The translations under genes and the position numbers were made by a program. From Candidatus Amesbacteria bacterium RIFCSPLOWO2_01_FULL_49_25 (lineage in GTDB: Bacteria; Patescibacteriota; Microgenomatia; CAZETR01; Amesbacteraceae): DNA of 64,000 nt. Position 1 is the stretch's first letter; every line of letters starts with the position of its first letter. The stretch lies in contig MEXP01000020.1 in NCBI GenBank assembly GCA_001773725.1, forward strand, positions 19,526 through 83,525, written 5' to 3'. Positions 3,514 to 27,913 of this stretch are shown in pieces. The notes under the pieces are model-generated. The model did not search any database. It was given only the letters and a program-made list of their open reading frames with translations, and was not told the DNA's origin.

Positions 3514-5064
3514 ATGGATCCAACCCCCACTTCCCCAGCTCCCCCCCCGCCTCCCACGCCTCCTCCACCTCCTACGCCCCCCAGCAATTACTATGCTTCA
3601 TCGTCTGATTCTGGAGTCACTGTCCCGCCTCCGCCTGCACCCCCCCCGCCGCCATCCTCGCCCCCACCTGCTTCTACCCCCGTCACTCCCTCCTTTTCAT
3701 CCAAGGCAATAAGAACCCGTCATTTTCCCATTATTCCTTTAATAATAATTTTAATCTTGCTGATATTAGGAGCCGTCGCCTTTTTTGTTCTCAAATCCGG
3801 GAAAAACTTATTCAACCTCACATCCACCAATATTACCTACTGGGGTTTGTGGGAGCCGGAGTCGGTAATGCAGCCATTGATTGATGAATATCAAAAATCC
3901 CATCCCGGCGTCAAAATTACTTATATCCAGCAGTCTCCCAAGGAATACCGGGATCGGTTGCAAAATTCCCTGGATCAAGGCAAGGGCCCGGATATCTTCC
4001 GCCTTCATAGTTCCTGGATACCCCTTCTCAAAAACCACCTCGCTCCCATTCCCGCCAGTGTCTATTCATCTCAGGACTTTGAATCCACCTTTTATCCTGT
4101 CATAGGCAGTGACGTCCGCGTAGGCAACAACTATTCGGCGATTCCCGTCGGATTTGATGGTCTGGCTATGTATGTAAACGATGATTTACTTCAAGCCTCC
4201 GGCCAATCTGTCCCCCAAAACTGGGACGATCTCCGTCTCGTCGCCCAAGCCATGACCCGGTGCGATTCTCCCGACGGTAAATGTACAGGCGCCTCGAAAA
4301 TCTTGGTTTCAGGAGCATCTCTCGGCACCGCCGACAACGTCGACCATTGGCAAGATGTTCTGTTGGTCTTAATGCTCCAAAACAACGTCAACCTCGGTTA
4401 TCCTACTGGCAAGTCTGCCCAAGACGCCTTAAATTACTACACAATTTTTGTTAAAAGCGACCATATGTGGGACTCCACCCTACCTAGTTCCACCTTCCAA
4501 TTCGCCGCCGGCAAGGTAGGCATCTACTTCGCCCCATCTTGGAGAGTTTTTGAGATCCAGCAAAAAAATCCCCAGCTCAAGTTTAGTATCCACCCCATAC
4601 CTCAGCTACCCATCGAACCCAGCCGCGGGGAGCAACCGATTACCTGGGCCAATTATTGGGTGGAAGGCATCAGCAAAAAAAGCCCCCGGGCCGCTCAGGC
4701 TTGGGAGTTTCTTAAATATTTAAGTTCCCCAGACGCTTTGCAAAAGTTTTACCAGCAAGCAGTCGCCTCCGGCCGGGCTTTCGGCGAACCCTACCCCAGA
4801 ATCGACATGGCTTCTTCCATTAAAGATGCCCCTTTAGTTGGCCCATACATCAATCAAGCTTCCCAGGCTCGATCTTGGTATCTAGCCTCCAGCACCCAAG
4901 ACTCCAATGAGAGTTTAAACTCAAAACTTTCCAAATATTTTGCCGACGCCGTTAACACCTCCCTTAAAGGCATTGCGGGTGAAAGTATTACCAACACCCT
5001 GGCCCAGGGCGTCAATCAGGTTCTCTCCCAATATGGCCTCGCCACTCCCGTCGCCCCTCGTTGA
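3514..5064 (+). CDS. TM-anchored extracellular solute-binding protein (ABC SBP family 1-like) with a Pro-rich N-terminal tail
   Basis: The low-complexity PPPPPTPPPPPTPP N-terminus is followed by one TM helix, then an SBP_bac_1-like fold (ITYWGLWEPE...GKGPDIFRLHSSW). No permease or ATPase genes are adjacent. Confidence 0.6.
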   Translation: MDPTPTSPAPPPPPTPPPPPTPPSNYYASSSDSGVTVPPPPAPPPPPSSPPPASTPVTPSFSSKAIRTRHFPIIPLIIILILLILGAVAFFVLKSGKNLFNLTSTNITYWGLWEPESVMQPLIDEYQKSHPGVKITYIQQSPKEYRDRLQNSLDQGKGPDIFRLHSSWIPLLKNHLAPIPASVYSSQDFESTFYPVIGSDVRVGNNYSAIPVGFDGLAMYVNDDLLQASGQSVPQNWDDLRLVAQAMTRCDSPDGKCTGASKILVSGASLGTADNVDHWQDVLLVLMLQNNVNLGYPTGKSAQDALNYYTIFVKSDHMWDSTLPSSTFQFAAGKVGIYFAPSWRVFEIQQKNPQLKFSIHPIPQLPIEPSRGEQPITWANYWVEGISKKSPRAAQAWEFLKYLSSPDALQKFYQQAVASGRAFGEPYPRIDMASSIKDAPLVGPYINQASQARSWYLASSTQDSNESLNSKLSKYFADAVNTSLKGIAGESITNTLAQGVNQVLSQYGLATPVAPR

Positions 5065-20805: not shown

Positions 20806-22269
20806 TCAACCTACCTTTTCCGTTACTCTGTACTCGATATACCTTCCCAACATCAATCTGGTATGGGCATCCAGCCCAGGCAATGCTCCAAAGAAAAAAC
20901 CCACCACCGGCATCAGCGCGAACTCGAACGGTATTAGCCATGCCCTCCAAAAAGCCACATCCTTAGGTCTGGGCGGCTTTCTCTTTGAGTCGATGACAAA
21001 CAGTATTACTAAAAATAGTAAAGTAATCGACAAAATTACGGATGAAATTCTTGGTAGCATAAACCCTACTGAAGTCCGGGCGAATTTGGGATTTACCAGT
21101 GTCGAAATAGTCGCGCCAGCCGTTATCACAAACCAATTAATCGGCCACAGCAGGTGATCCTCGATCACCCTCAACAGTCTCACCATCTTGTTTATCCAAG
21201 ACCCTTTGGGATTGTTGATAAACATTTCGATAAAAGTTGGAATATCCGAAACTCCCCAAGCCCACCTCTGTTTCTGTTTGTAGTCATTAACGAACGTTTT
21301 CCAAGTCGTTGTCGATTCCGCGGCGTCCTGAAAAGACGGCAGGAAAATCGGCTCAGCTTCCACCCTACCTTCCAGCTTAAAGAAGGCCTTAAAAAATATT
21401 CTATAATCCTCCGGTATGACATCCGTATCCCAATATCCCACTTCCAAAATAAGCCTGAAAGAAGCCGAATAACAGGAAAAACTCACCAATCTGTCTTTTC
21501 TGGACTGCAGCCCCATTACCCAAATTGTCGCAAAAGTATTTACCACCCGGGTAGCCGCCGGTAATCTCCAAATGTTATTGTAAAACATAACTACCGGCTG
21601 CCAAAATCTCTCGTAGCGGTGTGGATCGTCCAAAAATTTAAATGTCAGACAGGCAAAGTATTGCGGATGCAGCCTTGCGTCCGCATCGTTTGAGGTCACA
21701 GTCATGTATTGGATGTCCCATCCCTTTTCATCAATCAAAATCCTTTTTGCTTCTCTGGCTGCCCAGGCTTCGTTAGAAGACTTGCCCTTTATTTCTCCTA
21801 CAATATTAGCCGGGTGCATCGTTATCAAATATTCGCCAAATTTACTCCCCAACTCTGCCCTCAATTTCTCGCATTCTTTTTCTCCGTTCGGGTATCTGCC
21901 TTCTGTTGCCATCACCACCGCCAGCTGATTCAGCGGCATTGACTGTTTGGCCAAAGCTTCCAGTGTCTTTCTGTAAACTTCCGCCGGTTCATTGGCTATT
22001 AAAATAATTATTACGTGTTTTACTCTCTTCCAATCCAAAAAGCCCTTGGCCTCTCTCAGCCAATCCAGGTGTTCGGCCGCCAGCATTTTAAAATGCGTCA
22101 TCAAAACCGTTATCGTTACCGTCAGTCCTTTGTATACCCAAAAGATATCAAAAGCCAAAATAAAATAAGCTGTTGCCACCGGGATAAAATACCCGCCCCA
22201 AAACAAAAATAAAATCACGTTCCAAGTGATAAACCCTGGCAATATCTCCAAAAATCTTTTCCTAGTCAT
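20806..22269 (-). CDS. processive family-2 glycosyltransferase (cellulose/hyaluronan-synthase-like)
   Basis: DAD and ED motifs plus QKQRW (QxxRW), with flanking TM helices. Confidence 0.75.
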   Translation of the reverse strand: MTRKRFLEILPGFITWNVILFLFWGGYFIPVATAYFILAFDIFWVYKGLTVTITVLMTHFKMLAAEHLDWLREAKGFLDWKRVKHVIIILIANEPAEVYRKTLEALAKQSMPLNQLAVVMATEGRYPNGEKECEKLRAELGSKFGEYLITMHPANIVGEIKGKSSNEAWAAREAKRILIDEKGWDIQYMTVTSNDADARLHPQYFACLTFKFLDDPHRYERFWQPVVMFYNNIWRLPAATRVVNTFATIWVMGLQSRKDRLVSFSCYSASFRLILEVGYWDTDVIPEDYRIFFKAFFKLEGRVEAEPIFLPSFQDAAESTTTWKTFVNDYKQKQRWAWGVSDIPTFIEMFINNPKGSWINKMVRLLRVIEDHLLWPINWFVITAGATISTLVNPKFARTSVGFMLPRISSVILSITLLFLVILFVIDSKRKPPRPKDVAFWRAWLIPFEFALMPVVGFFFGALPGLDAHTRLMLGRYIEYRVTEKVG

Positions 22270-22973
22270 AAATTAAACAGCGATTTGGTATTTCTTGTAG
22301 TTACTCCCTCAATTCGATTAATTGAAGTGCCTCTTATTCCGGCCAGCGCTTCGGCTACAATTTTAACATTTTTCGGCGTATTACGCTTCCCCCGCCACGG
22401 TTCTGGCGCCAAATACGGGGCATCAGTCTCGATCAGCATTTTATCTTCCGGAACCAACCTTGCCACCTCTCTCAAATGTTCACTTTTTTTAAATGTTAAT
22501 ATCCCCCCAAAGCTTACATACCACCCCCTCTTCACACATTCTCTCATCTGCTCTTCGTTACCCGTAAAGCAATGCATCTGGACCTTATCGTAATCCAAAA
22601 CCTCAAAAATCTTCTCAAACTGGTCTCTGCAATGCACGACCAACGGCAACTTCGTCTCCCTAGCCAAATCTATATTAAATTTAAACAATTTTATTTCCTC
22701 CTCACTCCCCGTCTCCAAACCAGTCTCTCCTACTGCAACCACTTTCTTGTGTTTTGTCAGTTTAAGTAATTCATTGAGACTTGGTGCTTGTGGCTTGAGG
22801 CTTGCTTCAGGATGAACTCCTACAGTAGCGTAAACTTCCGAGTGCTTCTCCGCCAGCTCTACTGCTTTTCTACTTGTTTCCAAATCCGCCCCCACACATA
22901 TCATCGCCTCCAGTCCGGAATCTTTCCACTCCTCCTCCGAAATCTCATACAAATGGCAGTGCGCATCAATCAT
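22266..22973 (-). CDS. TatD-family metal-dependent hydrolase (DNase)
   Basis: DAHCHL...GETGLE...VVHCRD...ETDAPY motifs. Confidence 0.8.
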   Translation of the reverse strand: MIDAHCHLYEISEEEWKDSGLEAMICVGADLETSRKAVELAEKHSEVYATVGVHPEASLKPQAPSLNELLKLTKHKKVVAVGETGLETGSEEEIKLFKFNIDLARETKLPLVVHCRDQFEKIFEVLDYDKVQMHCFTGNEEQMRECVKRGWYVSFGGILTFKKSEHLREVARLVPEDKMLIETDAPYLAPEPWRGKRNTPKNVKIVAEALAGIRGTSINRIEGVTTRNTKSLFNL

Positions 22974-24388
22974 CGAATCCTCGGAAACAGCGGTGCTTCA
23001 GCTTTTATTTTCGGTCCGGCAAACTGTTTCAAAATCTTCTCCGCCGTTTCCGGCAAAAACGGCTGCAAACCAGTCACGATTTTCCTGATTGTGTCAACGT
23101 AGTTTTTCAACACGCTTTCTAACTTATCCTGCTCCAGTTTCCACGGCTGGTCCTTCTCAATCTGTTTATCCAGTTCCGAAATCCGCTCCCAAATTAATCT
23201 TAACGCCTCATCAAACCTAAATTCATCCAAAAATTTATTTTGTTCAGCTACTTGCCCTGAGCTTGTCGAAGGGTCAAACTGTGCAACTTTTTCTGCCAGT
23301 TTTGCGACGCGCGCAACAAGATTTCCCAGCCCATTAGCCAGATCCGCATTGTACGTTTCATTGAATTTTTGCCACGTAAAATCAGAATCCTCCCACGGAT
23401 GGATTTTAGCCAGCACATAATAACGCAAAGCATCCGTGCCGTATTTATCCGTAATCTCATTTGGGGCAATCGCAGTGCCCGCACTTTTTGAAATTTTCTG
23501 CCCGTTAACCGTTATGAATCCATGAATAAACACCTGTTTTGTATTTGGTAATCCTGCGGACAGGAGCATAGCCTGCCAAATGGCCGTTTGTTGGCGCAGG
23601 TTGTCTTTTCCAGCTGTCTGGATCCCCGGCCAAAACTCCTTAAACTTTTTATCATCTTCCGGCCAACCCAATGCGGAAATATAGTTCACCAGGGCATCAA
23701 ACCACACATACATTACCTGGTCTAGATCGTCTGGAATATCCACGCCCCATGGCATTTTTTTCTTAAGTCTCGATATGCTGAAATCCTCCAGGCCCCGTTT
23801 CACAAATTCCTTTATTTCGTTGTATTTTCCCTCCGGTATTACAAAATCTAGGTTCTTTTCATAAAATTCCAAAAGCGGTTTCTGGTATTTAGAAAATCTG
23901 AAGAAATAGTTCTCCTCCTCATATATTTCCAAATCCAGGTTTGGATGAAACTCGCACTTCCCGTCTTTCAGCTCTGAACCTGTCTTTTCTAGTTCACATC
24001 CCACGCAATATTTAATTTTGTAATTTTTTTTGTATACATCTCCGCTCGCTAAACATCTTCGCCAAAACTCCTGTGCCGCCGCAATATGTTTTGGATCAGT
24101 GGTTCTTATAAAATTATCGTAATCTAGATTTAGAGTTTGTTTTAAAGCATCAAACTTGGCCGCGTACTCATCGCAATATTCCTGCGGACCTTTCCCCAAT
24201 TCCAGCGCCTTACGATATATCTTTAACCCGTGCTCGTCCGCGCCGAAATTGTGAAACACCTCTTCCCCCAACAGTCTGTGGTATCTAGCCAGCACATCCG
24301 CTTGGACTATCTCCAATGCGAACCCGACGTGCGGCTCCGAGTTAACGTACGGGATCGTAGTGGTGATGTAATACTTTTTGGTGTTCAT
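22970..24388 (-). CDS. metG: methionine--tRNA ligase (core enzyme, no C-terminal extension)
   Basis: Class I aaRS: PYVNSEPHVGF (HIGH-like) and KISKS (KMSKS); 472 aa. Confidence 0.9.
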   Translation of the reverse strand: MNTKKYYITTTIPYVNSEPHVGFALEIVQADVLARYHRLLGEEVFHNFGADEHGLKIYRKALELGKGPQEYCDEYAAKFDALKQTLNLDYDNFIRTTDPKHIAAAQEFWRRCLASGDVYKKNYKIKYCVGCELEKTGSELKDGKCEFHPNLDLEIYEEENYFFRFSKYQKPLLEFYEKNLDFVIPEGKYNEIKEFVKRGLEDFSISRLKKKMPWGVDIPDDLDQVMYVWFDALVNYISALGWPEDDKKFKEFWPGIQTAGKDNLRQQTAIWQAMLLSAGLPNTKQVFIHGFITVNGQKISKSAGTAIAPNEITDKYGTDALRYYVLAKIHPWEDSDFTWQKFNETYNADLANGLGNLVARVAKLAEKVAQFDPSTSSGQVAEQNKFLDEFRFDEALRLIWERISELDKQIEKDQPWKLEQDKLESVLKNYVDTIRKIVTGLQPFLPETAEKILKQFAGPKIKAEAPLFPRIR

Positions 24389-25062
24389 AGTTCACTTATG
24401 ACCTGCCCCAATTTTAATCCAAATCTCTCCTGCGCGCTGCCGAGATTCACCACCAGCTCAAGTAGGTCGCTACTGCCATTAAAAATCAACGGACTGCCCT
24501 CTGGCACATCCGAAAAAGTTTTGACTACCGGCAATCCGAACGTCTCCCCCCCCCAAATTTTAGCGTTTCCGTAATGATCGATGTGAATTACTTGTCCTTC
24601 TTGAAATCTTAATTTCTTAATCTCTTCAATCTCTTCTCCTCTTGGTTTCTCGCCCAACGCCAAATAAACCGCCTCTTTAATAAATATATCTCGTCCATGG
24701 AAAGTATTTGAAACATTTTCAAAATCTATAACTTTCCAAATTCTTTCAATTCCATCCGCAACTGCCGCGGGATACAACAGCCCATTATCCGGTCCCACAA
24801 ACCAGAAGTTTCTAGTTTTTATTATAATTCCCGCCCGCTCCGACCCCACTCCCGGGTCTACAACTCCCAAGTGCACCGTCCCTGGCGAGCAAAACTTGAC
24901 TAACTGCCATATCCCATATGCCCCCTCAATTATCGAAAACGGCTCCACATCGTGGTTTTCCACTAAATAACCATCATAACCCAAGCCCGCCACAATCACT
25001 TTTAGTTGACTTGTGGCAAACCCGTCCCCAAAGTCTGTGGTAATAGTGATTATTTGTTTCAT
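24385..25062 (-). CDS. SAM hydroxide adenosyltransferase (DUF62; SAM -> adenosine + L-methionine)
   Basis: ITTDFGDGFA...VVDPGVGSERAGII...FHGRDIF. The start is taken at the ATG at 25062 (MKQIITITTDFG); the track's extension to 25116 uses a TTG and would make the gene contain the terminator hairpin. Confidence 0.75.
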   Translation of the reverse strand: MKQIITITTDFGDGFATSQLKVIVAGLGYDGYLVENHDVEPFSIIEGAYGIWQLVKFCSPGTVHLGVVDPGVGSERAGIIIKTRNFWFVGPDNGLLYPAAVADGIERIWKVIDFENVSNTFHGRDIFIKEAVYLALGEKPRGEEIEEIKKLRFQEGQVIHIDHYGNAKIWGGETFGLPVVKTFSDVPEGSPLIFNGSSDLLELVVNLGSAQERFGLKLGQVISEL

Positions 25063-25174
25063 ACAACTAAAAAACCCCGCCTTAGCGGGGCCTAACACGA
25101 CAATGCCCCGCTTCAACAGGTCATCATCATGCTCATGGCAACAATATTTACGTTCACCACCTCAATTATACATG
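25060..25174 (-). promoter_or_regulatory. candidate Met-codon leader-peptide attenuator: extended -10 promoter, leader ORF MSMMMTC (25113..25136), antiterminator/terminator alternative pairing
   Basis: Minus strand: CATG-TATAAT (25174..25165), then ...AUG AGC AUG AUG AUG ACC UGU UGA | A GCGGGGC | 13 nt | GCCCCGC UAAG GCGGGG UUUUUU | AGUUGU AUG. Region 1 (GCGGGGC) and region 3 (GCGGGG) can both pair with region 2 (GCCCCGC). Confidence 0.45.
25069..25091 (-). terminator. intrinsic-terminator-like hairpin (GCCCCGC-UAAG-GCGGGG + U6), 6 nt upstream of the DUF62 start
   Basis: Reading the minus strand: GCCCCGCUAAGGCGGGGUUUUUU, followed by AGUUGU and then AUG. Confidence 0.55.
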
Positions 25175-25187
25175 CTATACTCCCGCC

Positions 25188-26396
25188 ATGGCAAATCCCT
25201 ACGCTCCTCCAGCGAAAATCTTGCAAAAATACGCCCAAGTATTAGTCAATTTTGCTCTCAACTCCGGTTCCGGCGTCAAAAAAGGTGAAGTAGTTCGCCT
25301 CATTGTCAGCGAATGCGCCAAGCCTCTCTACGTGGAGCTTCGCAACCAGGTTCTTCGCTCCGGCGCCATTCCCCTTACCACCTACGAGCCGGACGACGTC
25401 TCCCGGGAATATTATCAACTAGCCAATAAAAACCAACTCAAATTTTTCCCAAGCCATTACATGCGTGGCCTGATTGACGAAATTGACCACTCCATCGCCA
25501 TCATTTCCGAATCAGACAAACACGAATTGGAAGGTATCGATCCCAAAAAAATAATGACTCGAAACATTGCCTTCAAGCCGGTCAAAGACTGGCGCGACGC
25601 CAAAGAAAACGCCGGTAAATTTACCTGGACACTGGCTCTCTACGGCACTCCCGCCATGGCCAAGGAGGCAAGTCTATCCCCCGCGGATTACTGGGCCCAG
25701 ATTGTCAAAGCCTGTTTTTTGGACGAGCCCGATCCCATTGCCAAGTGGCGCCAGGTTTTCCAAGAAAACGATCGGCTTCGCACTAAGCTCAATGCCCTAA
25801 AGATCGACAAGTTGCATATCAAAGGCGTCAGAGTCGATCTCAGGGTCAAAATCGGCCCAGGTCGCAAATGGCTGGGCGGTGGCGGCAGAAACATTCCTAG
25901 TTTTGAGGTTTTTATCTCTCCCGATTGGCGGGGGACAACAGGCCACATCGAATTTAACCAGCCCTTATATCGCTACGGAAGTCTTATCGAAGGTATCAAA
26001 TTGGATTTTCAGGATGGGCTTGTAATCAAAAGCTCCGCCTCCAAAAACTATTCTGTCTTAAAAGAAATGATCGCCACCAAAAATGCGGATAAAATTGGTG
26101 AATTTTCTTTAACCGACAGACGTCTTTCCCGTATCGACAAATTCATGGCCGAAACTCTTTTCGACGAAAATATATCCGGGCCTTACGGCAACACCCACAT
26201 CGCCCTAGGGTCCGCTTACCACGATTCCTATACGGCAAATCCCGCAAAGGTATCCAAAGCTAAGTGGGAAAAAATGGGTTTCAACAATTCTGTCGTCCAT
26301 ACCGACATTATCTCGACAACCGACCGCACCGTCACCGCTCATCTTGCAGACGGAATCCAAAAAATCATTTACCGAAGCGGACAATTTACCTTTTGA
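25188..26396 (+). CDS. M29-family aminopeptidase (aminopeptidase T/AmpS-like)
   Basis: 402 aa with M29 thermophilic-metalloprotease-like conservation (...FNQPLYRYG...GNTHIALG...). Confidence 0.65.
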   Translation: MANPYAPPAKILQKYAQVLVNFALNSGSGVKKGEVVRLIVSECAKPLYVELRNQVLRSGAIPLTTYEPDDVSREYYQLANKNQLKFFPSHYMRGLIDEIDHSIAIISESDKHELEGIDPKKIMTRNIAFKPVKDWRDAKENAGKFTWTLALYGTPAMAKEASLSPADYWAQIVKACFLDEPDPIAKWRQVFQENDRLRTKLNALKIDKLHIKGVRVDLRVKIGPGRKWLGGGGRNIPSFEVFISPDWRGTTGHIEFNQPLYRYGSLIEGIKLDFQDGLVIKSSASKNYSVLKEMIATKNADKIGEFSLTDRRLSRIDKFMAETLFDENISGPYGNTHIALGSAYHDSYTANPAKVSKAKWEKMGFNNSVVHTDIISTTDRTVTAHLADGIQKIIYRSGQFTF

Positions 26397-26745
26397 GCCA
26401 GTCCTTTATCTTCCCGTTCCACTTCGTCGCCCATTCGTCAGCCATTACCCTTCTCAGTGCCAGCTTCCACCCCGCTCTGTCCATCCCTTGCTGGACGCTG
26501 GCAATAGTCGCACTGGATACTTTCAAGTTTTGTTTGATATTTTCATAACTTCTTTTTTTGGACAACCAGTAAGCCACCGCCACTCTCTTGCTGATGGCCG
26601 TCGTCTCTGTTTCTGTAAGCAGTTCGTCAAAAACCAACTGGGCTTCGCCGCTCGTTTTTGTGTCGGCAATCAGCTGGTACCACATTCCCCGCACTTGTTT
26701 TTCCAAAGTATCATTTATACTCCTTTTCGATATTTGCACGCGCAA
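26386..26745 (-). CDS. TrpR-like (YerC/YecD family) DNA-binding protein
   Basis: 119 aa with a Trp_repressor-like HTH region (TETTAISKRVAVAYWL). Confidence 0.5.
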   Translation of the reverse strand: MRVQISKRSINDTLEKQVRGMWYQLIADTKTSGEAQLVFDELLTETETTAISKRVAVAYWLSKKRSYENIKQNLKVSSATIASVQQGMDRAGWKLALRRVMADEWATKWNGKIKDWLKR

Positions 26746-26753
26746 ATAGTACT

Positions 26754-27089
26754 TTAATTAAACAAACTTATCAACCCCAAAATTGCCAGCCACAATCCGA
26801 AAGTTATCCAATCCAATATGTCCAACCGTCTCATTATGACAAGGCTCCACAGCCCCACGGCAGTGACAATCCCCCATTTCCTAGTCCCCCATGCCCAGCT
26901 CGCCACAAATATCATTCCCAAAAACAGCAAACTATTGGCTATCACTTCCACCCACCACTTATCCGGTGGGGTATTTAAAACAAATATCGTCAAAATTACC
27001 CAAAACCCCGTTCCTATTATAAGAGTCGTCCATCTTCGGTTAGATATATAATGTCTATGTGTCATTACAGCTCCTAACCATCTTATCAA
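26754..27089 (-). CDS. small integral membrane protein
   Basis: Three hydrophobic helices, 111 aa. Confidence 0.4.
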   Translation of the reverse strand: MIRWLGAVMTHRHYISNRRWTTLIIGTGFWVILTIFVLNTPPDKWWVEVIANSLLFLGMIFVASWAWGTRKWGIVTAVGLWSLVIMRRLDILDWITFGLWLAILGLISLFN

Positions 27090-27913
27090 TAATTCTTCTC
27101 AGCTTTGCAATTAGCCTCTGGCTTATTCGCCGCTGGCTGACCCAAAATCGTTCTGGAGATCAGGGGTTATACCAATGGCTTCAATCTGTCCAATCGTCTC
27201 TGGACAGCTCCACCCGTCTCATGGCCGATGTCCAGCACTCTCTGGGCGAAATGTCCGAAGTCGGCCGTGGCATAAAGTCCCTCCAGGATTTTTTAGCCAG
27301 CCCCAAGCTTCGGGGTGGGTTGGGAGAGGAAGTCTTGGGCCAGATGATTGGATCTACTTTCCCCAAAAACGCTTTTCACCTCCAATATTCCTTCAAATCC
27401 GGCGTCAAAGTGGACGCCGTTTTAAAAACCGACGCTGGTCTTTTGTGCATCGATTCCAAATTTCCCCTGGGCGACTTTGTAGTCGCCGACATAAAAAAGC
27501 ATATTAGTGACATTGCCAAAAAATACATCTTGCCGGAAGAGGGAACTATGGACTTTGCCCTCATGTATATTCCCTCGGAATCTGTCTATTACGAAGTCGC
27601 CAGCAATCGCGAACTCACCAACTATTCCCGATCTCTACGGGTTTATCCGGTCTCCCCCAATACCCTTTACGCCCACCTTCAAGTTCTCCTTCAATCCCTT
27701 CAAGGCAAAGAACTCGAAGCCAAGTCCAGGGCCATTTTACAGGCTCTTCGCGCCGCTCAAAAAGATTACGACAGAGTCACCGAAAACATGAGCGTTTTAA
27801 ACCGCCACCTCACCAACGCCTTCAATCAAATGTCCCAAGTCACCTCCTCCACAACTCTTTTAGGCCAAAAACTTAGTCACACACACCAATTGTCAGAGCC
27901 GGAAAATTCATGA
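27059..27913 (+). CDS. rmuC: DNA recombination protein RmuC homologue
   Basis: N-terminal TM helix, coiled coil, and RmuC-like KLRGGLGEEVL...DSKFPL core. Confidence 0.65.
   Translation: MSLQLLTILSIILLSFAISLWLIRRWLTQNRSGDQGLYQWLQSVQSSLDSSTRLMADVQHSLGEMSEVGRGIKSLQDFLASPKLRGGLGEEVLGQMIGSTFPKNAFHLQYSFKSGVKVDAVLKTDAGLLCIDSKFPLGDFVVADIKKHISDIAKKYILPEEGTMDFALMYIPSESVYYEVASNRELTNYSRSLRVYPVSPNTLYAHLQVLLQSLQGKELEAKSRAILQALRAAQKDYDRVTENMSVLNRHLTNAFNQMSQVTSSTTLLGQKLSHTHQLSEPENS

Follow-up and report, generated by a model that had tools for sequence, protein, structure and literature searches.

On the minus strand of a 64,000-nucleotide stretch of contig MEXP01000020.1 from Candidatus Amesbacteria bacterium RIFCSPLOWO2_01_FULL_49_25 (the window, whose numbering is used throughout for its features), a short leader precedes the gene for a DUF62-family S-adenosylmethionine (SAM) hydrolase, and this leader very probably acts as a ribosome-mediated leader-peptide transcription attenuator that senses the supply of charged elongator tRNA-Met. 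A Met-sensing attenuator had been proposed here in an earlier note made by reading the window, and the comparative evidence, which comprises 21 leaders and the covariation of their RNA segments, supports that interpretation. The features of a classical attenuator are present, namely a Met-codon-rich leader open reading frame (ORF), an intrinsic terminator, a covarying antiterminator and a first RNA segment with matching stall geometry (Table 1).

Every element of the layout described in the earlier note can be seen on the minus strand: the ORF is followed by GCGGGGC, a 13-nt spacer (25104-25092), the block GCCCCGC-UAAG-GCGGGG-U6 and 6 nt leading to an ATG. A single A at 25112 stands between the TGA and GCGGGGC, and the 6 nt between U6 and the DUF62 ATG (25062-25060) read AGTTGT.

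Relatives of the window locus were gathered by three routes. A scan of one genome per species gave nine loci with DUF62 44-85% identical (Candidatus Amesbacteria, Microgenomates group, Patescibacteria group), a metagenome scan with a DUF62 alignment gave one close locus together with 79 distant ones (30-39% identity) that were used as negative controls, and a protein search gave 275 DUF62 homologues at E values up to 1e-40, of which twelve, from 80% down to 50% identity, had their contigs examined. Removal of duplicates left 21 distinct leaders (the window, L001-L010, L090, L093-L097, L101-L103 and L108), and the 20 relatives belong to Amesbacteria, Gottesmanbacteria (L108), other Microgenomates and unclassified Patescibacteria.

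The layout is kept in all 20 other distinct loci, including 12/12 of the proteins sampled down to 50% identity. Each leader presents, in this order, a −10-like hexamer, a start codon, the ORF with its AUG cluster, a stop codon, a G-rich segment, a spacer, a C-rich segment, a loop, a second G-rich segment and at least five T. The first of the two G-rich segments begins 0-4 nt past the stop codon or at its last base, and about 20-30 nt separate the stop codon from the terminator. Conversely, the element is absent from all 79 distant DUF62 loci, whose two Met runs lie inside coding sequence. An unbiased scan of both strands of 247 kb (window and close loci), which required a terminator-like hairpin and a preceding small ORF with a post-stop segment able to pair with a terminator arm at −9.5 kcal/mol or below, returned DUF62 leaders only, and a scan of the 64-kb window found no attenuators for other amino acids. 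A repeat, a mobile element and a generic terminator were considered as explanations and rejected: no other copy of the element occurs in the window or in the loci and, as the flanking genes are divergent, the window intergenic region contains no neighbour gene that would need a terminator.

Behind the leader, most loci have DUF62 and then metG, tatD and a GT2 glycosyltransferase gene, in some cases with a small gene for a cupin, a glyoxalase or a peptidase between DUF62 and metG. DUF62-metG synteny is kept in L001-L008 and in most loci reached from the protein search. In four relatives (L009, L102, L103 and L108), however, the leader precedes DUF62 and no metG is present in the sequence fetched; to judge from this gene order, the conserved and invariant target of the element is thus the DUF62 SAM hydrolase and not metG.

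The leader ORF has 13-16 sense codons in 20/21 leaders and 42 in L008. The Met-rich sequence MSMMMTC, which the earlier note had read as a complete micro-ORF, is encoded in the window as described (ATG AGC ATG ATG ATG ACC TGT TGA, 25136-25113), but its proposed start at ATG 25136 gives way to a likelier one, since the frame remains open upstream to GTG 25157 or GTG 25160. Because GTG 25157 is homologous to the ATG start of L002 (MDKNVVAMGMMMTC) and both lie 7 nt past the −10 box, the window leader peptide is likely to comprise 14 codons from GTG 25157, (M)NVNIVAMSMMMTC, and not only MSMMMTC. Other relatives encode leader peptides such as MKLGVYMMAMDSA, MTNKSYMMMAMTSA, MTTQTSVMMDMMLAS, MKITIVSMSMMANP, MRLSTAVKEMMMTF and MKRIFSAVMMMAS.

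Methionine codons dominate the ends of these ORFs. Over the last ten sense positions of the 21 leaders, AUG makes up 72 of 210 codons (34%; binomial P = 3.6e-60 on a 2.5% background), and the ATG trinucleotides found inside the ORFs are without exception in frame (76/76, with 0 in the other two frames). A cluster holds 2-4 Met codons, the last of which always stands 2 or 3 sense codons before the stop codon (21/21). The residues between the Met codons vary (A, S, Q, D, G), the clusters are arranged as MMM, MMxM, MxMM or MxM, and their flanks vary freely. The long leader of L008 (2560-2813 of that locus) encodes MNKKVEEMMVEISVSTKPISFTSLNRSMLTLSRVAMGMMEAS with a second MM pair near the N-terminus, and its terminator U-run abuts the DUF62 ATG (GAGGG-U7-ATG); it represents an enlarged form of the element.

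In 19/21 leaders the start codon follows a −10-like hexamer at a distance of 6-10 nt, and no Shine-Dalgarno (SD) sequence precedes the leader ORF in any of the 21. The leader mRNA is therefore probably leaderless or near-leaderless. Among the 47 long ORFs of the window, with starts crudely taken as the first ATG, SD-like motifs precede 8 and a −10-like hexamer lies 5-10 nt before the ATG of 8, which suggests that the organism seldom uses SD sequences and that many of its mRNAs are leaderless. With SD-like motifs this rare and −10 boxes this close to several ATGs, leaderless translation of the leader ORF is plausible.

The earlier note had drawn three RNA segments engaged in two mutually exclusive pairings. 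The exclusive pairings hold up in folding and covariation, but the drawing was one segment short: there are four, and the additional one is the end of the ORF itself (segments 1 to 4 in Table 1). In the modelled folds segment 1 is an anti-antiterminator and possibly also part of a pause hairpin. The 3:4 terminator is found in 21/21 leaders at −10 to −19 kcal/mol (window −15.7), and the 2:3 antiterminator, folded with the transcript cut before segment 4, likewise in 21/21 at −9 to −17 kcal/mol (window −14.8). The 1:2 hairpin also occurs in 21/21, at −2.6 to −9.2 kcal/mol (CCUGU/GCGGG in the window) and with the stop codon in or beside its loop, and is weak in L095, L102 and L108. A U-run of at least five directly follows the terminator hairpin in every leader (21/21).

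In the window, the 101-nt leader folds at −41.9 kcal/mol (z = −5.15; 0/200 dinucleotide shuffles fold as well), and the pairing of the post-stop segment with the 5′ arm of the terminator, at −16.6 kcal/mol, is reached by 5/1000 shuffles. The terminator hairpin (25093..25072; 9 pairs, 6 of them G-C) ranks at the top of 11 terminator-like sites between 20000 and 30000. Across the 64-kb window five terminator-like hairpins with a T-run pass a simple filter, and that of the DUF62 leader is much the strongest; strong intrinsic terminators are very rare across the window.

The four segments change together between lineages. In the order 1/2/3/4 they read UCCGC / GCGGGG / CCCCGC / GCGGGG in one flavour, UCCGC / GGCGG / CCGCC / GGCGG in a second, CUUCC or CCUCC / GGAGG / CCUCC / GGAGG in a third and CCUCC / GAGGGUCUG / CAGACCCUC / GAGGG in a fourth. 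In a duplex-energy test that does not depend on alignment register, the 14 nt after the stop codon were paired with the 10 nt before the terminator loop. Cognate 2:3 duplexes averaged −13.1 kcal/mol versus −9.3 for non-cognate ones, and each cognate duplex ranked in the top 0-6% when its own segment 2 was shuffled 1000 times, with a Fisher combined P of 1.8e-22 (3.8e-12 on nine representatives). Pairs were also counted on alignments that took their structural register from per-sequence folds, were padded with N and carried artificial end anchors. By this count 80% of cells are paired in the 2:3 antiterminator, where 7/9 pairs have changed on both sides (score 0.506; shuffled mean 0.20, 0/500 shuffles, best slid register 0.17). 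The corresponding values for the 3:4 terminator are 85% and 6/9 (score 0.549; shuffled mean 0.158, 0/500, best slid 0.12), and those for the 1:2 hairpin are 85% and 6/6 (score 0.564; shuffled mean 0.29, 0/500, best slid 0.19). Across the related leaders, therefore, the ORF with its Met run is kept and compensatory changes support both alternative pairings; a Met-rich micro-ORF and antiterminator complementarity, whose loss from orthologous leaders would have spoken against the attenuator proposed in the earlier note, are each present in 21/21.

Combining these observations, we propose the following model. The transcript would begin at the start codon of the 14-codon leader ORF or no more than a few nucleotides from it. 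With plentiful Met-tRNA, the ribosome would reach the stop codon and cover segment 2, and the 3:4 hairpin would form; with no ribosome at all, the 1:2 hairpin would form and 3:4 with it. Once 3:4 has formed, RNA polymerase would terminate about 90 nt into the transcript. With scarce Met-tRNA, the ribosome would stall with an AUG in its A site, covering segment 1 and leaving segment 2 free to pair with segment 3 before segment 4 is made, so that no terminator would form and transcription would read through into the operon. The response would free methionine from SAM and raise charging capacity through methionyl-tRNA synthetase (MetRS).

The geometry of this model was examined in constrained folds in which the RNA was masked, as by a ribosome, up to 13 nt counted from the first A-site base. 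When the last Met codon occupies the A site, the footprint extends roughly to where the stop codon ends, at which point segment 1 is covered and segment 2 is exposed. A ribosome modelled at the stop codon gives the terminator in 21/21 leaders, as the earlier note had expected. The antiterminator that it had expected from a stalled ribosome forms in 21/21 leaders when the stall is modelled at the first Met of the cluster and in 16/21 when it is modelled at the last Met, the window being among the exceptions.

Several points weigh against the attenuator reading. First, even when a ribosome is placed at the last Met, equilibrium folding of the window leader and of four relatives slightly favours the terminator, so that read-through in these leaders would require the 2:3 helix to form ahead of the transcription of segment 4. 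Second, the window leader starts either with GTG, which is usually a poor start codon on a leaderless mRNA, or at an internal AUG that has no SD. Third, the Gottesmanbacteria leader L108 has just two Met codons. Fourth, the pair counts given above are somewhat inflated, as the alignments were fitted to structure and the sequences are related, and plain MAFFT followed by RNAalifold on the stretch from the stop codon to segment 3 gives no consensus structure; since the spacers differ in length and place the 3′ arms out of register, we regard the latter result as uninformative rather than negative. Fifth, the leader ORF needs Met-tRNAfMet to start, so that a severe Met shortage, which would also deplete initiator tRNA, should cut ribosome loading and restore termination through the 1:2 and 3:4 hairpins. 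Finally, the attenuator reading is drawn entirely from sequence, and the host organisms are uncultivated.

The leader ORF and its hairpins might instead act mainly on translation, with 3:4 sequestering an SD-like segment 4 or the DUF62 start until a stalled ribosome opens the hairpin. Segment 4 reads GGAGG or GAGGG in 9/21 leaders and in several, for example L008, this SD-like motif lies 7-13 nt before the DUF62 ATG; furthermore, the leaderless poly-Cys ORFs of mycobacteria work by sequestration of the ribosome-binding site (bioRxiv 10.1101/834739). We nevertheless consider a translational output unlikely. The U-run of at least five that every leader carries is the mark of an intrinsic terminator and would not be required for SD masking, the DUF62 start lies 50-80 nt past the hairpin in 9 loci (0-81 nt overall), SD-like motifs are rare in the genome and the window segment 4, GCGGGG, is not an SD. 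The output structure here is a hairpin with a U-run and not sequestration of a ribosome-binding site, segment 4 being SD-like in some leaders only.

A different signal could in principle be read by the same RNA. The fixed distance of the MMxM or MMM motif from the stop codon is what might be expected of a ligand-sensing arrest peptide of the TnaC or SpeFL type, in which free Met or SAM would stall the ribosome and induce the SAM hydrolase at high SAM or Met, that is, with the opposite sign. Known arrest peptides, among which TnaC senses Trp and SpeFL senses ornithine, carry extended conserved motifs. No such motif is seen in the leaders, where only Met residues recur and their number (2-4) and spacing vary. 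Induction of a SAM-degrading enzyme under SAM excess would be physiologically sensible, and the role of DUF62 enzymes is unsettled (PMC12120602), but co-regulation of metG fits the sensing of shortage better than that of excess, and we find an arrest peptide very doubtful.

Slightly more doubtful still is a sensor of general translation efficiency that responds to ribosome inhibitors or global starvation, the AUG run being incidental or serving re-initiation. The RNA would behave alike wherever in roughly the last six codons the ribosome stalled, and attenuators of this kind, the ermC type, exist (PMC2965389). A general sensor would, however, leave two findings to be accounted for: methionine, a rare amino acid, makes up 34% of the last ten codons across all lineages, and the sole invariant target is a methionine-releasing enzyme, usually followed by MetRS.

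An independent micropeptide gene with its own terminator, or tandem hairpins born of duplication, with DUF62 transcribed separately and the 2:3 complementarity a by-product, is barely credible: segment 2 with its U-rich tail does closely resemble segment 4 with its U-run in most leaders, but segments 2 and 4 change in concert with segment 3, which calls for selection on 2:3 and not shared ancestry alone, the peptide is not conserved apart from Met, and there is no room for a further promoter, the U-run ending 0-6 nt before the DUF62 start in 8/20 measurable leaders. A Met-sensing attenuator accounts for the U-run, the variability of the peptide, the specificity for Met and the missing promoter space better than any of these four explanations.

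Table 1. Features of the DUF62 leader and its surroundings in the window.
Feature	Coordinates	Strand	Basis and remarks
−35 hexamer TTGCCA	25189..25194	(−)	Consensus scan; overlaps first codons of the divergent M29 aminopeptidase gene
−10 hexamer TATAAT	25165..25170	(−)	Strand reading and consensus scan
Leader ORF (likely start), 14 sense codons + TGA	25113..25157	(−)	GTG AAC GTA AAT ATT GTT GCC ATG AGC ATG ATG ATG ACC TGT TGA
Met-codon cluster	25122..25136	(−)	AUG at 25136, 25130, 25127, 25124; last AUG 2 sense codons before stop
Segment 1, CCUGU (last ORF codons)	25116..25120	(−)	Folding and covariation; pairs with segment 2, stop codon in loop
Segment 2, GCGGGGC	25105..25111	(−)	1 nt past stop codon; pairs with segment 1 or segment 3
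Segment 3, AGGCCCCGC (GCCCCGC = 25091-25085)	25085..25093	(−)	3′ arm of 2:3 antiterminator, 5′ arm of 3:4 terminator
Terminator loop TAAG (UAAG)	25081-25084	(−)	Strand reading
Segment 4, GCGGGG (25080-25075) + T6/U6 (25074-25069)	25069..25080	(−)	Terminator 3′ arm and U-tract
DUF62-family SAM hydrolase (SAM hydroxide adenosyltransferase), 225 aa	24385..25062	(−)	Pfam PF01887 1.1e-34, PF20257 2.6e-15
metG, class I methionyl-tRNA synthetase, 472 aa	22970..24388	(−)	Pfam PF09334 3.5e-96; start overlaps DUF62 stop
tatD-family hydrolase	22266-22973	(−)	Pfam
GT2 glycosyltransferase	20806-22269	(−)	Pfam
M29 aminopeptidase	25188-26396	(+)	Pfam; divergent from DUF62

The promoter of the leader (TTGCCA-18-TATAAT, 25194..25165) agrees with the consensus at 11/12 positions and is the top of 21 promoter-like sites between 20000 and 30000. 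It had been described as an extended −10 promoter; the TATAAT is confirmed, but the extended status is not, as the TG directly abuts the hexamer with no spacer base (the canonical form being TGnTATAAT) and the promoter scan raises no extended −10 flag. Among the 21 leaders, whose upstream sequences were read by eye, 11 have the canonical TGnTAnnnT. The 125-bp intergenic region between the DUF62 and M29 aminopeptidase genes amounts to two back-to-back promoters. On the plus strand a promoter-like site, TTCACC-17-TATACT with a TG (25153-25188), ends 6 nt before the ATG of the M29 aminopeptidase gene, the mRNA of which is, from this spacing, probably leaderless as well, and each of the two divergent promoters overlaps the first codons of the gene belonging to the other.

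The identities of the genes in the proposed operon DUF62-metG-tatD-GT2 are borne out by Pfam, and all four lie on the minus strand with overlapping or abutting ends. In the PDB, the window DUF62 protein matches PH0463 and MJ1651 with E about 1e-28, and the MJ1651 structure is also deposited as '(R)-S-adenosyl-L-methionine hydrolase'. A DUF62 start at the upstream TTG 25116, which would make the hairpin part of the coding sequence, was considered and rejected, as homologues align from MKQIITITTD; the distance from the U-run to the start, which ranges from 0 to 81 nt among the leaders, speaks against it as well. Several public DUF62 gene calls of 237-243 aa (P0001, P0024 and others) place the start codon, TTG or GTG, within the attenuator hairpin (24385-25116 in the window), and to judge from the sequences these N-terminal extensions are almost certainly annotation errors. 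Beside the unit of leader, DUF62 and metG, most relatives share a neighbourhood that comprises RmuC, an M29 or M32 peptidase and a small protein of the Trp_repressor family (26386-27913 in the window; L090, L093-L101); this small protein (PF01371) lies at 26386-26745 on the minus strand of the window.

Some relatives carry further elements between the leader terminator and the DUF62 start. A conserved stretch of about 40 nt is found in L001 (3940-3990), L002 (about 3935-3995), L005 (3945-3995) and L101 (2945-2995). It reads ACTCACCC(C)TAATCC-CTCTCTTAA-TC-TAAGAGAGGG-ACA and folds into a hairpin of 10 bp, the arms of which show covariation in L002 (CCCCCTCTTAA/TTAAGAGGGGG). A pattern search matches it at this position only, and the window, with just 6 nt between U-run and ATG, does not have it. 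From its sequence it could be a second regulatory or stabilising hairpin. A second short ORF directly after the U-run (GGAGG-U7-ATG) is present in L006 (about 3948-4013), where it ends overlapping the DUF62 start codon, and in L007 (about 3920-3952), and is not conserved in other lineages.

The element has no counterpart among catalogued RNA families. At gathering thresholds, Rfam matched only a tRNA in the window, and relaxing the cutoff to E = 10 added nothing beyond partial hits on terminator-like 3′ ends in unrelated small RNA models. Neither Trp_leader, His_leader, Leu_leader, Thr_leader and the other Rfam leader families nor T-box and SAM riboswitches gave a covariance-model match, and the leader is also too short for the aptamers of the latter two. 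Full-text literature searches brought up no Met-codon attenuator, although a Met case could still exist in a supplementary list for Deinococcus deserti (Table S9, PMC4007540), and no attenuator in bacteria of the Candidate Phyla Radiation (CPR), Patescibacteria or Microgenomates. The earlier note knew of no described Met-codon version, and the Rfam and literature searches agree with it.

The Escherichia coli trpL leader and those of the his, leu, thr, ilv and pheA operons resemble the present element in having a short ORF (14 codons) with regulatory codons that end 2-3 codons before the stop, as well as four segments with 1:2, 2:3 and 3:4 alternatives, a U-run terminator and a stalled ribosome that hides segment 1 while leaving segment 2 available (PMC4007540 gives a summary of the trp attenuator). 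The present element differs from these classical leaders in that AUG is sensed, the leader ORF is apparently leaderless and lacks an SD, the host is a CPR bacterium and there is no sequence or Rfam relationship; furthermore, it would control a SAM hydrolase and an aminoacyl-tRNA synthetase and not a biosynthetic pathway. Its nearest counterpart is trpL as regards the length of the ORF and the placement of the regulatory codons, and the pheST, trpS, leuS and hisS attenuators as regards the proposed control of a synthetase.

Leader-peptide attenuators of synthetase genes include pheST/pheM in E. coli. Further examples are trpS and leuS in Streptomyces (PMC1262725) and the hisS paralogues of bacilli (PMC2965389). 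In these systems too, the leader ORF contains a run of codons for the amino acid that the synthetase charges, which controls a terminator ahead of the synthetase gene, but none of them serves Met or metG, whereas here DUF62 comes first and is invariant, and metG lies outside the unit in four lineages. Leaderless sensory ORFs also have precedents: in mycobacteria, leaderless poly-Cys short ORFs sense Cys and mask a ribosome-binding site (bioRxiv 10.1101/834739), and in D. deserti 14 leader peptides, leaderless, are predicted upstream of tRNA synthetase and biosynthesis genes (PMC4007540). In both, as is proposed for the DUF62 leader, a sensory ORF lies at the 5′ end of the transcript without an SD, and stalling on a codon run remodels the downstream RNA. 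The mycobacterial elements are unlike it in sensing Cys and in sequestering the ribosome-binding site, with no terminator and U-run. S-box and other SAM riboswitches and Met T-boxes have the same regulatory goal and a terminator/antiterminator output, but their sensor is a large aptamer that recognises SAM or uncharged tRNA directly.

Leader-peptide attenuation is textbook for Trp, His, Leu, Thr, Phe and Ile/Val, with Cys added in Actinobacteria, and the control of methionine genes has been ascribed to SAM riboswitches, T-boxes and MetJ-type repressors. A Met-codon attenuator would fill a gap in the known leader-peptide specificities and would mean that the attenuation mechanism arose in a deep uncultivated lineage with few SD sequences and few terminators. 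To our knowledge, next to nothing has been learned about how CPR bacteria regulate their genes, for the study of which a clear and testable cis-element would be useful.

DUF62 enzymes convert SAM to methionine and adenosine, and their physiological role is described as unknown (PMC12120602). A DUF62 gene switched on together with MetRS by a shortage of charged tRNA-Met offers a specific and directly testable hypothesis on this role. The fullest form of the proposal is that (i) the element is the first Met-specific leader-peptide attenuator and the first attenuator family recognised in CPR bacteria, (ii) its invariant target, DUF62, serves to recover methionine from SAM when charged tRNA-Met is low, and (iii) the leaderless sensor integrates initiator and elongator Met-tRNA; taken as a whole, we see the case for it as evenly balanced. 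If it is true, the SAM from which DUF62 recovers methionine might be the inactive (R,S) epimer or might be imported, and the operon would respond in two phases, being switched on at moderate methionine shortage and off again when the shortage is severe.

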